Shown: positions 27,735 through 32,477, counted from the first letter of the stretch. The stretch: 37,860 nucleotides of DNA from a virus (IMGVR_UViG_2541047762_000007); one strand, 5' to 3'. Numbers and translations: made by a program. Notes: generated from the letters alone by a model not told the origin.

Positions 27735-28721
27735 CTATTTAAGAATAAAACGGTACTTACTGTCAGGAGTGCTTTGCTGATCAAGTAGCAGTGAACGACA
27801 TGGAGCAGTCAAAACCCGAGCATAACTACCATCAGGGCTTATGTTAATGTAACAAACCTTGCCCTTAACACTATAATTTTCGGGGACGGATGCCTTTGCT
27901 GATACAGTAAATTTAAGGGTATGCCAGCCCGTTTTTTGCTTGTAGCTTGAAACCGAATGGAAATCATCTGAGTACTTATTTAACCCTGGAAACATGCTGC
28001 GCAGTGCGGGGATGGAATCTTCTATTATTTTATCGTTGGTTTTAATGTTAAAAACGCTGGTTTCAGTAGAAGCTACTGCTTTGGCATTTCCCCATTTACC
28101 AGCGAACACAATCATTCCCACGAAAAATATTGCTACAAGAACTAACACTCCCCCCAACACTACTACATGAGGCTTCCGGCTTCTGGTTGGTACAGTTGCG
28201 ACTGATTTTGCACCGCTTTCCGATGGAGGTGATAGAGTTTTACTCTCATCACGAATATTCAGCAGATCATCAAAATAACCAAACACAGCCTGCAACTGCT
28301 CTTTGTCTAGGCCTTTAAGATGGGTTGTACCGAAATGCTTCAGACAGTATCTGTCACGGTCAAGACGATACCCAGGGTCAGTAAGCGCCATTATTTTGCT
28401 GACCAGAAGATTACAGTCCTTCATATTCTGGATCTGTTGTGCATATCTCTGAAGGATCTCAACCGCACCATGATAATCAGCCGCAGTCATTTCATTAACT
28501 GTTTTGGTATTAAGTTTCGTGTGGATCGTCATCCATAGCTCGCGCTTACTTTCCCCCAGATCAACCAATTCATCCATCAATCTGTGTAAATCGCGTTTTT
28601 GCAGCAACGAAATTGGTTGCTGGGCCGAAGGAAGTATGTCAGCAGAATAGTTATGAATGGTAACATCACCGCTGACAACGTTACCCACATCCCCGTTAAC
28701 TGTTTGCTTCTCTTTACTCAT
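27735..28721 (-). CDS. Bitopic membrane protein co-transcribed with repressor (candidate superinfection-exclusion/defence protein)
   Basis: 328 aa, start overlaps repressor stop. Single transmembrane helix (HVVVLGGVLVLVAIFFVGMIVFAGKW) splits an ~185-aa N-terminal domain from an ~120-aa C-terminal domain. N-terminal motif GDVGNVVSGDVTI echoes the repressor C-terminus. Confidence 0.6.
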   Translation of the reverse strand: MSKEKQTVNGDVGNVVSGDVTIHNYSADILPSAQQPISLLQKRDLHRLMDELVDLGESKRELWMTIHTKLNTKTVNEMTAADYHGAVEILQRYAQQIQNMKDCNLLVSKIMALTDPGYRLDRDRYCLKHFGTTHLKGLDKEQLQAVFGYFDDLLNIRDESKTLSPPSESGAKSVATVPTRSRKPHVVVLGGVLVLVAIFFVGMIVFAGKWGNAKAVASTETSVFNIKTNDKIIEDSIPALRSMFPGLNKYSDDFHSVSSYKQKTGWHTLKFTVSAKASVPENYSVKGKVCYINISPDGSYARVLTAPCRSLLLDQQSTPDSKYRFILK

Positions 28722-29179
28722 CTTCTCTTGGTATTTTTGTTCATTATTCCACCTGTTCCTATGGTTACGTTACCTTTGATAACATTCCCCAGAACATCTC
28801 CATGAATAACCTGTTCCGCCCGTTCTCTGGAGGAGCCAGTAGTCAAGGCCGACAAAACTGAACCTTTGACCTGTAATGGTGCCTGCCGGTAGTGCTGCAG
28901 TAACTCCATTTCATCACGTGATAAAGTTATACCTGATGACTCCCCGGTAAGAATGAACTGTACATTGGCCCCAATTCTTGCAAAGGCTGCAAGTAACTCA
29001 CCTCCGGGAACAGCAACCCCTCGTTCATATTTCCCCCACATTTCTCTTGAAACGCCACAAAGGGCTGCTACTTCAGCCTGCTTGAGTGATAACCGCGAAC
29101 GCTCAGCTTTGAACCGCGACGCGCAAAGAGAATCAAAATTCACATAAACCTCATTGACAATGAGAACAATAGTTCTCAT
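28718..29179 (-). CDS. XRE/Cro-C1-type HTH repressor (immunity repressor candidate)
   Basis: HTH segment LSLKQAEVAALCGVSREMWGKYERG; divergent from the early operon. True start may be the GTG at 29143, since operator-like palindromes cover 29150..29179. Confidence 0.75.
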   Translation of the reverse strand: MRTIVLIVNEVYVNFDSLCASRFKAERSRLSLKQAEVAALCGVSREMWGKYERGVAVPGGELLAAFARIGANVQFILTGESSGITLSRDEMELLQHYRQAPLQVKGSVLSALTTGSSRERAEQVIHGDVLGNVIKGNVTIGTGGIMNKNTKRR

Positions 29180-29182
29180 AAT
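29150..29182. promoter_or_regulatory. Operator-like palindromes overlapping early promoter
   Basis: Perfect palindromes CTCATTG-A-CAATGAG (29150..29164) and ATGAGAAC-AATA-GTTCTCAT (29160..29179). Consensus -35 TTGACA at 29154..29159 and CATAAT at 29177..29182 with 17-bp spacing, facing the Ner/Cro-like gene. Confidence 0.6.
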
Positions 29183-29229
29183 CTATCACATATAAAACAA
29201 ACATCATTGCATCAACAAAGGAGACAACA

Positions 29230-29418
29230 ATGACTTCCGAACAAGTTAAAAATCTCTTCCGTCAGCGTGGTATCACGTTTACCCGCTGGGCCGAAGAACA
29301 CGGCTACAGCCGCAATGAGGTCTATCGTGTTCTCAATGGACAGACCAAAGCTCGTTACGGCAAAGCCCATGAAATTGCCGTAAAACTGGGATTAAAACCC
29401 ACGTCAAATGCGGCATAA
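29230..29418 (+). CDS. Ner/Cro-like small DNA-binding early regulator
   Basis: 62-aa basic protein, first gene of the rightward operon, divergent from repressor; SD AAAGGAGA upstream. Confidence 0.65.
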   Translation: MTSEQVKNLFRQRGITFTRWAEEHGYSRNEVYRVLNGQTKARYGKAHEIAVKLGLKPTSNAA

Positions 29419-29470
29419 ATTTTCCACATATGCAACAGGTTATCACATATTGCAAAAATGGAAATGTGAC

Positions 29471-29789: not shown

Positions 29790-30704
29790 ATGGGACGCAC
29801 CAAATCACCCGTTAACACTGAACTGAATGTTGAGGTTCCGCTGTCAGATAACATCAATGTCAATTTGAACGCTATGACACAGCATCGCATGGAAATTATG
29901 CAGCAGTTTGGTGATGGACTGCCTTATGAACGTGATCGCATTGTTCACGAAGCACGTTTTTATATGGCGCAGAGTGCTGAATCTATGCTGGAAGCAGGTA
30001 AGCGGCTGATCATCTTAAAAGAAAATGAGCCACACGGTGATTTTACAAACATTTTAGAAAATGAACTCGGACTTGCACCACAAGTTGCTCGCCGCATGAT
30101 GCAAGCCAGTATGAAGTTTTTGGGAGAAGGTGATGAGCCAACAAAACGCTCAACGTTGAGCGTTTTGGGGAAAGCCAAACTGTACGACCTGATGGTTCTG
30201 GATAATGAAGAACTTGATGAATTGGCCGACGGCGGCACAGTTGCCGGCCTGACGCTTGACGACGTTGATCGCATGTCAGTACGTGAATTGCGTCAGGCCC
30301 TGCGCGAAGCGCGCGAAACCAACGCAGCACAACAGCGCGTACTCGCCGACAAAAATGAAAAAATAGATTCACTCTCCACCAGACTGGAGAAGAAATCCCG
30401 TATTCAGCCGCCTGAGCCTGATGAGGAGGTTAAGAAGCTGCGGGCGGAAGTAACAGCATTAGCGGTTGAGGCGGAATCTGCTATCGCCGTCCGACTGTCC
30501 AGCGCTTTTGAGACGCTGTGCGCATATTGTGCTGAAAACATGATTGATACCCCCAGAGACTTCATGGCAGGCCTGGTCTGTCAACTGGAAAGCACAGCGC
30601 GTAGCCTGCGCTCCACATTTGACCTGCCGGACGAGCCAACAGGCAATGCAGCGCCTTCATGGCTGACTGAGCCGACGCCACAGATTAACGGGCTGGAGGC
30701 ATAA
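29790..30704 (+). CDS. Early protein of unknown function
   Basis: 304-aa ORF coupled to the upstream gene and immediately preceding the transposase. Confidence 0.55.
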   Translation: MGRTKSPVNTELNVEVPLSDNINVNLNAMTQHRMEIMQQFGDGLPYERDRIVHEARFYMAQSAESMLEAGKRLIILKENEPHGDFTNILENELGLAPQVARRMMQASMKFLGEGDEPTKRSTLSVLGKAKLYDLMVLDNEELDELADGGTVAGLTLDDVDRMSVRELRQALREARETNAAQQRVLADKNEKIDSLSTRLEKKSRIQPPEPDEEVKKLRAEVTALAVEAESAIAVRLSSAFETLCAYCAENMIDTPRDFMAGLVCQLESTARSLRSTFDLPDEPTGNAAPSWLTEPTPQINGLEA

Positions 30705-30707
30705 CCA

Positions 30708-32477
30708 ATGAATGCTGCCCTGACTGAACGACTGGTTTATGTCGCCCGCGCGGCACGTGACGCGGGGCATGGTAAACGCGGTGCAATATACGACGCTGCC
30801 TGTGCTGAACTTGGCATGTCCCGCGCCACTCTGCTGCGCAGGCTGAAGGAGGTCTCTGTGACTGATAAACGCAAAAAACGCGCCGATGCCGGGCGCAGCG
30901 CCCTGACCCGCGACGAAGCCGCGCTGATATCTGCCACACTGCGTGAGGCCACCCGCAAGAACGGTAAGCGTCTCTATTCCATCGCGGATGCAGTGGAAAC
31001 CCTGCGGGCTAACGGCTTTATCTCCGCAGGCAGAACAGATGAAACCACCGGTGAGTTTTTCCCGTTGTCCGAAGATGCCATCAGCCGAGCCCTGCGTAAC
31101 TATGGCCTGCACCCGGAACAACTGGATGCCCCTGCACCACATACTGAAGTGGCCAGTCTGCATCCCAATCATGTCTGGCAGATTGATGCCTCGCTCTGCA
31201 CGCTTTACTACCTGAGTAATGGACACAAAGGACTGCAGGTGATGGACAGCGCGAAGTTCTACAAGAACAAGCCCGCTAACCTTGCCCGTATCGCCAGTGA
31301 CCGCGTGTGGAGTTACGAGATTACCGACCATGCCAGCGGCTGGATTTACGTTGAGTATGTGACGGGTGCGGAATCCGGTGAGAACCTGTGTTCTGTGCTT
31401 ATCAACGCCATGCAGGAGCGTGGCGGCGCAGACGTGCTGCACGGCGTGCCAAAAATACTCTATCTCGACCCCGGCTCGGCAAACACCGCGGGTATGACGA
31501 AAAACATGTGCCGCTCACTGGGCATTGACCTGATAGCGCACAAGCCGCATAACGCCCGCGCCACCGGACAGGTGGAAAAGGCGCGTGACATTATCGAACG
31601 CAAGCTGGAGCCGGGTCTGAAGTTCCGGCCGGTTCACAGTCTGGAAGAACTCAACGCGCTGGCCGCGAAATGGCGCAGCCACTTTAACGCCACGGCTGTT
31701 CACAGCCGCCACGGTAAAACCCGCACGGATATCTGGCTGAAGATTACTACTGAGCAGCTGAAAAAAGCGCCTTCCGTTGAGGTATGTCGTGAACTGGCTG
31801 TGGCGGCACCAGAACTCCGCAAAGTCACGCCAAAACTTCGTGTCTCGTTCCGGGGCACTGAATTTGACGTATCAACGGTACCGGGCGTACTGGTCGGTGA
31901 AAAACTGATGATTACCCGTAACCCGTGGCGCAGCGATGTGGCACAGGTGGTTCTGACCGGTGAGGACGGCCACGAGACGTTCTTCCTGGTCGAAGAGGTC
32001 AGAAAGAACGAGTTTGGCTTTGCTGAAGGCGCGGCGGTATTTGGCGAAAGTTACAAAGCCCTGCCGGAAACACCGGCGCAGACGGCGGCAAAAGAAACTG
32101 AAGCGCTGGTCACCGGTACAGACAACGCCACAGATGCAGCTGCCGCACGCAAGGCGAAGGCGCTGCCGTTCGGCGGGCGGCTTGACCCGTATAAACATAT
32201 TGATGACGCCACACTTCCGGCCTATATGCCGAAGCGCGGTCAGGCCTCTGACGTACGCGGGCCGCGCACTGAACAACGTCCCATGACTCATGTGGAGGCC
32301 GCGAAAGCCCTGCGCGATAAGTTCAGCGCCGACGGCCTTACCTGGACGCCGGAACATTACCGCCAGTTAACGGCACAGTACCCGGACGGCGTACCGGAAG
32401 CCGCACTGGATGAAGTCATGGCCACGCTGACCACGCCGGCACGCAGCAGTGTTATCAGCATTGTTAACGGCAACTGA
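30708..32477 (+). CDS. DDE transposase (Mu A-like)
   Basis: 589 aa with N-terminal HTH-like region and an integrase-type catalytic core (HVWQIDAS, LYLDPGSANTA, ATGQVEKA); followed by a MuB-like ATPase. Confidence 0.8.
   Translation: MNAALTERLVYVARAARDAGHGKRGAIYDAACAELGMSRATLLRRLKEVSVTDKRKKRADAGRSALTRDEAALISATLREATRKNGKRLYSIADAVETLRANGFISAGRTDETTGEFFPLSEDAISRALRNYGLHPEQLDAPAPHTEVASLHPNHVWQIDASLCTLYYLSNGHKGLQVMDSAKFYKNKPANLARIASDRVWSYEITDHASGWIYVEYVTGAESGENLCSVLINAMQERGGADVLHGVPKILYLDPGSANTAGMTKNMCRSLGIDLIAHKPHNARATGQVEKARDIIERKLEPGLKFRPVHSLEELNALAAKWRSHFNATAVHSRHGKTRTDIWLKITTEQLKKAPSVEVCRELAVAAPELRKVTPKLRVSFRGTEFDVSTVPGVLVGEKLMITRNPWRSDVAQVVLTGEDGHETFFLVEEVRKNEFGFAEGAAVFGESYKALPETPAQTAAKETEALVTGTDNATDAAAARKAKALPFGGRLDPYKHIDDATLPAYMPKRGQASDVRGPRTEQRPMTHVEAAKALRDKFSADGLTWTPEHYRQLTAQYPDGVPEAALDEVMATLTTPARSSVISIVNGN

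Follow-up and report, generated by a model that had tools for sequence, protein, structure and literature searches.

The window, that is, the whole stretch of 37,860 nt that was analysed, carries a transposable prophage of the BcepMu type in E. coli, and its control region lies between two divergently oriented genes. On the minus strand, the repressor gene extends over 28718..29143, with 141 codons and a stop when read from GTG 29143, and RefSeq annotates it from ATG 29179 (29177..29179; gene 28718-29179, product WP_001259268.1 of 153 aa). On the plus strand, the first early gene (29230..29418) encodes a 62-aa HTH protein of the BcepMu gp16 family, also called "Ner-like". The intergenic gap of 50 bp between the annotated repressor ATG 29179 and ATG 29230 contains the feature that an earlier note on this DNA had reported. 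For the 751 bp around the control region, the identity is 100% with E. coli IAI39, CE10, and many other chromosomes, and this whole stretch is carried by 125 of 5,426 complete E. coli genomes. The closest isolated phage is Escherichia phage PhiKM, classed as Bcepmuvirus; a repressor of at least 60% identity was found in no isolated phage of the collection, so the window is, judged by its repressor, a new immunity type.

The repressor possesses an HTH of the XRE/P22 C2 type, followed by a C-terminal region of approximately 70 residues that has no known domain; the Pfam search gave only HTH_31 and HTH_3 and no S24 peptidase domain, and a few distant homologues of the repressor (P0068, P0069, and P0078) have PF00717. 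The closest solved relatives of its DNA-binding domain are the P22 C2 and 434 cI complexes (PDB 2R1J, 3JXB, 1PER), with E = 9e-5 for the N-terminal domain of P22 C2, in which repressor residue 5 is aligned to residue 4, and E = 0.02 for the 434 repressor. A tblastn comparison of the repressor gave 38.5% identity with BcepMu gp17 and 36% with the "repressor" of the B3-like phage Ps59. The adjoining gene on the same strand (27735-28721) encodes a Flk_N-like membrane protein of 328 aa, and the two genes overlap in an ATGA stop/start. The C-terminal tail of the repressor and this co-translated Flk-like membrane protein have a common motif, GDVxGNVxxGxVTI.

The first early gene is preceded by the Shine-Dalgarno sequence GGAG (29220-29223, plus strand), and its product matches NCBIfam TIGR04111 ("BcepMu gp16 family") with 94.4 bits at a cut-off of 34. 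The match to HTH_35 (PF13693), the Pfam family of Mu Ner, is nearly full-length and stays at 14.6 bits (E = 0.034), with a cut-off of 25. The early operon continues from this gene through an IclR-like winged-HTH protein and a DUF3102 protein to a DDE transposase and onwards. Three features of BcepMu/B3-type membership are present, namely, a gp16-family early gene, a divergent gp17-like XRE repressor gene together with a membrane-protein gene, and a short intergenic promoter with a dyad, and they identify the region as controlling lysogeny in a transposable prophage of the BcepMu/B3 type, a layout that is already known.

The earlier note had described a TTGACA and a CATAAT with 17-bp spacing that are aimed at the Ner-like gene, and the promoter scan bore this out. 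The putative early promoter, Pe, consists of the -35 hexamer TTGACA (29154..29159) and the -10 hexamer CATAAT (29177..29182) on the plus strand, separated by a 17-bp spacer and located 76 bp upstream of ATG 29230, with the same geometry in relatives. It is an 11/12 match to sigma-70 and the sole match of at least 11/12 on either strand of the 37.9-kb window; shuffled windows have a mean of 0.37 such matches, and 31% of the shuffles contain one. From its position, transcription would start at approximately 29189.

An inverted repeat, ATGAGAAC-AATA-GTTCTCAT (29160..29179), takes up the -35/-10 spacer completely and extends over the start of the -10 hexamer (3 nt). It is the predicted primary operator, O1, an 8-4-8 dyad with the core GAGAAC-N4-GTTCTC. 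It had been described as a perfect palindrome of 20 bp; the inverted repeat stands, with perfect arms of 8 bp, but its perfection does not, for the 4-bp centre AATA is asymmetric and 18 of the 20 positions are self-complementary. The second element of that description, the 15-bp perfect palindrome P1 (CTCATTG-a-CAATGAG, 29150..29164), was confirmed as a perfect 7-1-7 repeat. The palindromes by themselves are not significant, because inverted repeats with arms of 7-8 bp occur in the window at about the chance rate: a search with a minimum arm of 7 and a maximum spacer of 6 gave 30 matches, several of which are one repeat scored at different spacers, and the expectation is approximately 16 for arms of 7 and approximately 4 for arms of 8. 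The significance of O1 rests on its position and on the comparison with relatives.

This comparison drew on 80 loci located through the gp16 homologue, with one genome per species, and on five more lineages from Salmonella, Pectobacterium, Dickeya, and metagenomes, which were located through homologues of the repressor. A repressor whose DNA-binding N-terminal domain is at least 61% identical is encoded by exactly six of the 80 gp16-anchored loci (five from Pseudomonas and one from Serratia). It is exactly these homoimmune loci, six of six, in which the O1 core is present with 0-1 mismatches and at a constant distance from gp16. It is absent from the remaining 74 (0/74), all of which show at least three mismatches. 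Similarly, the five repressor-anchored lineages were found to have the same dyad in the same register, with TTGACA followed by ATGAGAAC-N4-GTTC(T/A)CAT and running into CATAAT. The sequence elements, their geometry, their conservation, and the co-occurrence of O1 with the repressor type were observed directly.

Over the 11 lineages, the arms of O1 are nearly invariant and the central 4 bp vary freely (AATA, TAAA, TTTA, CAAA, TATA, TAGA, TTAA, and TTTG). The changes in the arms are few, one-sided, and uncompensated, namely, GTTCACAT in L087 and L088 and ATGAGAAT in L083 and L053. Since the arms are conserved, the centre is free, and the changes are one-sided and uncompensated, the pattern fits an operator bound by a protein and not an RNA stem. 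An operator that overlaps a real-looking early promoter of the Ner-like gene, as had been suggested, is therefore supported, with a dyad that is conserved together with the repressor type. The wider family shows the same arrangement: of the 68 gp16 loci in which the promoter matches at 9/12 or better, 40 have a perfect dyad (arms of 6 bp or more) centred in the -35/-10 spacer, and such a dyad is found at 7% of control positions. Each immunity type has its own dyad, for instance, TATCCCATTTATGGGATA and GGTGCCAAATATGGCACC, or TGCTCATAATTATGAGCA in PhiKM, and a dyad between the -35 and the -10 is the family norm. No further copy of O1 with three or fewer mismatches was found in 29180-29230. A copy of the O1 core with one mismatch at 31380-31395, in the transposase gene, was rejected as an operator; the heteroimmune PhiKM is identical there.

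P1 behaves differently from O1 among relatives. It is perfect only here and in one Pectobacterium lineage (L087), and its left arm is variable elsewhere (CCCATTG, ACCATTG, TCCATTG, AACCTTG, and CCCCTTG). On the minus strand, the position of this arm is occupied in all homoimmune lineages by a purine-rich Shine-Dalgarno sequence that lies 5 nt ahead of the conserved start codon and is GAGG here and GGGG, GGTG, GGAG, or AAGG elsewhere. P1 and O1 overlap by 5 bp, and their half-sites, read toward the centre, differ (CTCATTG in P1 and ATGAGAAC in O1). P1 was considered as a second operator and was ruled out by its unconserved left arm and its different half-site and orientation. It is most likely a by-product of the abutting repressor Shine-Dalgarno sequence, -35 hexamer, and outer end of O1, and chance is a plausible best description of its perfection. 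Among the palindromes, only the 8-4-8 dyad O1 co-travels with the repressor.

A candidate for a second, weaker operator, O2, is AAGAGAAT-CAAA-ATTCACAT (29126..29145), which lies outside the region given in the earlier note and was missed there. In each arm, 6 of 8 positions match O1, with three mismatches in the core and four in the 16 arm positions, and it is centred 34 bp left of the centre of O1, approximately three helical turns away. A match of this quality within 60 bp upstream has an empirical p = 0.011 against random places in the same locus. Among the heteroimmune O1 types, 13 of 32 have a significant second copy, which in 11 of these lies 27-35 bp upstream. O2 spans the GTG start and codons 2-6 of the repressor gene. 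A comparison of synonymous sites covered codons 2-66 of five enteric lineages, which have 57-69% repressor identity to the window. Codons 3-6 (TTT GAT TCT CTT) are identical in all five lineages and are the only ones of 40 that are synonymously invariant; the 36 other degenerate codons with an invariant amino acid all have at least two codon forms, so that synonymous sites are saturated. The TTT and TCT codons stay invariant after Salmonella and Pseudomonas are added. These frozen codons argue for a constraint at the DNA level, although part of the conservation of O2 could stem from requirements of the translation initiation region or of the protein N-terminus, and O2 is degenerate in two Pseudomonas lineages (L025 and L041).

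The minus-strand ORF comprises 153 codons, with GTG 29143-29141 in frame 12 codons downstream of ATG 29179-29177, and this first ATG is indeed covered, as had been pointed out, lying within the right arm of O1. The earlier note had offered a start at the GTG or a leaderless transcript from the ATG, and the former is very probably correct, because most homologues are called from MNFDSL, which is the GTG position (with an ATG there in a Salmonella homologue), a Shine-Dalgarno sequence GAGG (29149..29152, minus strand) can be read 5 nt upstream of the GTG, and the alignment to P22 C2 begins accordingly. In addition, the ATG inside O1 stands directly before TGA in Pectobacterium and Dickeya (L087 and L088) and is out of frame with the conserved start in the Pseudomonas loci. 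ATG 29179 as a leaderless start is thus disfavoured, it is probably not the true start, and the 153-aa RefSeq model is probably 12 codons too long.

The scan gave no sigma-70 promoter on the minus strand for the repressor. A candidate extended -10, TGaTAGATT (29180..29188, minus strand), was read from the sequence and may belong to a proximal repressor promoter; as TGnTAGATT or TGnTAAATT, it is kept in most enteric relatives, including the heteroimmune PhiKM, and not in Pseudomonas.

The -10 hexamer of Pe is also a recombination junction. Homology to PhiKM begins at 29178. Another 448 complete E. coli genomes match the 136-bp control region only from 29177-29179 rightwards, with other repressors and operators on the left side. 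The reverse is seen in Salmonella L085, which has the same repressor and operators, is common with the window to the left of 29182 and has nothing in common to the right, and whose first early gene is unrelated to gp16. As homology breaks at 29177-29182 in PhiKM, in the 448 E. coli genomes, and in L085, the repressor, O2, the -35, and O1 appear to constitute an exchangeable immunity cassette without gp16, with its junction inside the -10 hexamer (29177-29183). Gp16 proteins that are 85% identical adjoin entirely different dyads. Being outside the cassette and next to unrelated dyads, the gp16 Ner-like protein is predicted to be one that cannot read these immunity-specific operators and so cannot use O1 and O2 as Cro does. 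There are two immunity-independent candidates for its sites. One is the conserved 5'UTR block CAAAC-ATCATTGCATCA (29198..29214, plus strand), which has a related block in approximately 48 of 82 gp16 loci of many immunity types and may be a site for the gp16 protein or a translational element; the other is TCACATAT, which has only two exact copies in the window, at 29186 and 29443.

Other explanations of the dyad have to be weighed against an operator for the divergent repressor. The 8-4-8 repeat could form a hairpin in the repressor mRNA leader and act there at the RNA level, in stability or translational control, and the minus-strand RNA 29141-29190 folds with an 8-bp stem (-13.1 kcal/mol, z = -2.5) in a region across which the distal repressor promoter of the B3 relative Fc02 transcribes. 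However, the arms are conserved in sequence and show no covariation, the one-sided changes GTTCACAT and ATGAGAAT break the pairing, the register of the dyad is fixed against the -35 and -10 in all lineages, and an Rfam search for the hairpin gave no match, which leaves this reading very improbable. Equally little credence is given to a dyad bound by another early regulator. The IclR-like winged-HTH protein and the gp16 Ner-like protein would be candidates as small HTH proteins whose genes follow immediately downstream, but homologues 73-93% identical to those of the window adjoin different dyads (L003, L004, and PhiKM), and Salmonella L085 keeps the dyad and the repressor with no gp16 homologue. 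Chance, that is, an A/T-rich promoter region with short palindromes that have no function, can point to the near-expected frequency of repeats with 7-8-bp arms and to the 31% of shuffled windows with a promoter of at least 11/12. It is contradicted for O1 by the co-occurrence of dyad and repressor (6/6 vs. 0/74) across Enterobacterales and Pseudomonas, and by the 125 E. coli copies: in the 136-bp control region, none of them is less than 99% identical, but over the 751 bp that include the flanking genes, 29 drop below this value. As an account of the region, chance is scarcely credible, and for the 15-mer alone, it is plausible.

The model of the earlier note was that both palindromes are operators of a lambda-like bistable switch, in which the repressor and the Ner/Cro-like protein compete and a leaderless mRNA may start from ATG 29179. 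The arms of both repeats are perfect here and the 15-mer is perfect in L087 as well, the gene pair is divergent, the repressor has a P22 C2/434-class HTH, and from a weak minus-strand TTGATG-17-TATGTG, transcription would begin close to the A of the ATG. Nevertheless, of the two repeats, it is the 8-4-8 dyad alone whose conservation follows the repressor; the 15-mer has an unconserved left arm, which is Shine-Dalgarno sequence, and a half-site unlike that of O1, with which it overlaps by 5 bp, so the claim of two operators in this pair was not supported. In relatives, the ATG either stands before TGA or lies in another reading frame, and TATGTG lacks the conserved final T of a -10, in line with the scan. 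The comparison with lambda also went too far, for the HTH is of the P22 C2/434 class, but the repressor has no S24 domain, there are no three tandem operators, and the gp16 gene is outside the cassette. Overall, the model is unlikely to be correct.

The explanation that we consider the best as a whole, and regard as probable, is that of a Pe repressed from O1, a repressor that starts at GTG, a weaker copy of the operator in O2, and an exchangeable cassette. Pe, as a strong sigma-70 promoter, would drive the early operon from gp16 through the transposase onwards. The 141-aa repressor is predicted to bind O1 (ATGAGAAC-N4-GTTCTCAT) as a dimer and, because O1 fills the whole spacer and the start of the -10, would exclude RNA polymerase from Pe, thereby keeping the prophage silent. 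O2 probably provides cooperative binding and/or negative autoregulation, of which the autoregulation step is speculative, as the relative Fc02 makes its lysogenic repressor transcript from a distal promoter. The gp16 protein would act at a separate, cassette-independent site. Binding, repression, cooperativity, and the transcription starts are in each case what we infer from sequence and its conservation.

A more far-reaching joint reading, which is tentative and rather doubtful, combines a plug-in switch module, O2 within repressor codons, a separate gp16 site, hybrid logic, and induction by a membrane partner. In such a module, the repressor, O2, the -35, and O1 would move together, by recombination at the -10, onto a common early operon, and O2, lying within the first six repressor codons, would freeze synonymous sites; a GTG start would be favoured because GTG keeps the C of the half-site GTTCAC. 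If this reading is true, the switch would have a hybrid logic of lambda-class repressor chemistry and Mu-like Ner wiring, and induction might run via the Flk-like membrane partner and not RecA, a possibility suggested by the GDVxGNVxxGxVTI motif that is common to the repressor tail and the Flk-like protein.

Among known systems, BcepMu (NC_005882.1; Bcepmuvirus) has the same triplet, gp16-gp17-gp18, in the same orientation, with an XRE repressor gene that overlaps the downstream membrane-protein gene. It likewise has a TTGACA followed by a spacer dyad, GGTA..TACC, but differs from the window in operator sequence and repressor specificity, being of another immunity type. To our knowledge, the operators of BcepMu have not been mapped.

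The B3-family Pseudomonas phages (B3, Ps59, and Fc02) have, as here, divergent repressor and ner-like genes approximately 100 bp apart; the promoters of these phages overlap, and their ner-like genes are approximately 70% identical to that of the window at the DNA level. In Fc02, the promoter pE before ner fires on thermal inactivation of the repressor and overlaps the proximal promoter pC2 in a 106-bp intergenic region (PMC9936078). The candidate minus-strand -10 of the window would belong to a pC2-like promoter. RNA-seq of Fc02 placed the lysogenic repressor transcript at a distal promoter (pC1), antisense to ner, and the operators were left undefined in that study (PMC9936078). No equivalent of this distal repressor promoter was identified in the window.

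Further comparisons can be made with the classical switches. In the operators of P22 C2 and 434, the outer arms are conserved, and the central 4 bp are uncontacted and free to vary. The putative operator O1 has the same design of arms and centre, but with arms of 8 bp, a site of 20 bp, and another sequence; moreover, there are three tandem sites in P22 and 434, whereas the window has one intergenic site and one in coding sequence, and the C-terminal part of its repressor is not S24. The core logic of lambda CI and Cro is that both regulators use the same operators. Lambda OR resembles the window in its divergent repressor and early genes and in an operator over the lytic promoter, and pairwise cooperativity between two sites, as in lambda OR, is probable here. 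Unlike lambda OR, the window has no tripartite operator and no RecA-cleavable domain, and the gene in the Cro position is not co-inherited with the operators. The c/Ner system of Mu (O1-O3, Pe/Pc) is likewise that of a transposable phage, in which, as is probable for the window, the gene in the Ner position acts at its own site. However, the window repressor is not of the Mu c type, in which repressor and transposase have a common DNA-binding domain (only HTH_31 and HTH_3 in Pfam), and the Mu comparison gave no evidence that the window operators double as a transposition enhancer.

A literature search for mapped operators in BcepMu/B3-like phages and for DUF3102 found no operator mapping, and only the Fc02 transcriptome paper was relevant. 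The proposed O1/O2 model would thus be new in detail and unsurprising. Of modest practical value, it offers a specific operator model and corrects the start codon of a repressor whose annotated length is 153 aa, in a prophage found in 125 of 5,426 complete E. coli genomes with heteroimmune relatives in 448 more. An immunity cassette that ends within the -10 and excludes the gene in the Ner position would constrain the wiring of the lysis-lysogeny decision; the general concepts of phage regulation are left unchanged.

A separate observation was made further along the early operon. The longest palindrome of the window is a perfect one of 26 bp (30142-30167) within the DUF3102 gene, and at the same codons, 24 of 39 loci with a DUF3102 homologue likewise contain a perfect palindrome, its arms being 11 bp or longer. 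Its outer CAAA..TTTG is conserved, and the inner eight positions vary, always complementarily, so that they covary. The covariation was compared with the IclR-like winged-HTH protein and with the N-terminus of the transposase, and it tracked neither. A PDB sequence search for the DUF3102 protein gave no match, and a single-sequence AlphaFold model of it (pLDDT 45) was too poor for use. The palindrome tracks a helix approximately 20-35 residues upstream in the DUF3102 protein, which physical linkage alone could explain, and it looks more unusual than the operator region of the early promoter.

The longest palindrome in the window is a perfect 26-bp one, CAAAACGCTCAACGTTGAGCGTTTTG, which occupies 30142-30167 inside the DUF3102 ORF (29790-30704, plus strand), the gene that precedes the transposase in the early operon. 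Of the 39 loci having a DUF3102 homologue, 24 carry a perfect palindrome at the same codons whose arms are 11 bp or longer; these counterparts lie in L001, L005, L006, L016, L017, L024, L027, L031-L037, L043, L046, L050, L051, L060, L061, L071, L076, L080, and L087. Across loci, the outer ends are kept as CAAA..TTTG, the inner eight positions are variable with changes that are complementary in every case, and the breakpoints of mosaicism coincide with the palindrome.

The palindrome may be a self-encoded binding site of the KfrA or ParB kind, or it may act as a hairpin. Among the compared loci, neither the IclR-like winged-HTH protein nor the N-terminus of the transposase correlated with the palindrome; a one-to-one correlation was seen with DUF3102's own putative recognition helix, which is APQVARRMMQ in the window. 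This correlation is confounded by linkage, as the putative helix is encoded only 40-100 bp from the palindrome.

Another repeated element, TCACATAT, is present in only two exact copies in the whole 37.9-kb window, one at 29186-29193, at the predicted start of the early promoter Pe, and the other at 29443-29450, immediately upstream of the winged-HTH gene; the latter is also kept in the heteroimmune Escherichia phage PhiKM. Near copies lie at 29140, 29424, and 29462, and when one mismatch at most is allowed, five of the 14 matches in the window fall inside the 330 bp around the gp16 gene. TCACATAT is a candidate site for the 'Ner-like' gp16 protein. Directly ahead of the gp16 Shine-Dalgarno sequence, the 5'UTR carries a block, CAAAC-ATCATTGCATCA (29198-29214), that is kept in approximately 48 of 82 gp16 loci spanning many immunity types and genera, and that may serve either as a site for a protein or in translation.

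A recombination junction is located at 29177-29183, inside the -10 hexamer of Pe. Only the right side of it is common to the window, PhiKM, and 448 complete E. coli genomes, and only the left side is common to the window and the Salmonella element L085.

The annotated repressor (RefSeq WP_001259268.1, 153 aa, 28718-29179) probably begins 12 codons too early in that model, the conserved start codon being the GTG at 29143. PhiKM (PQ738613.1, locus L001) has its own XRE repressor gene, divergent from its gp16 gene, at locus positions of approximately 2650-2960 on the minus strand; this repressor gene is unannotated in the GenBank record, where the nearby entry is only a 126-nt 'hypothetical protein'.

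The C-terminal tail of the window repressor, VIHGDVLGNVIKGNVTI (28718-28790, minus strand), has a motif in common (pairwise E = 1e-4) with the N-terminal part, VNGDVGNVVSGDVTI (28650-28721, minus strand), of a Flk_N-like membrane protein of 328 aa, whose gene comes next and is translationally coupled to the repressor gene via an ATGA overlap. Among homologues, the HTH domain to which the same C-terminal tail is joined is of three or more distinct kinds. These features hint at a link between the repressor and a membrane partner instead of RecA-dependent cleavage.
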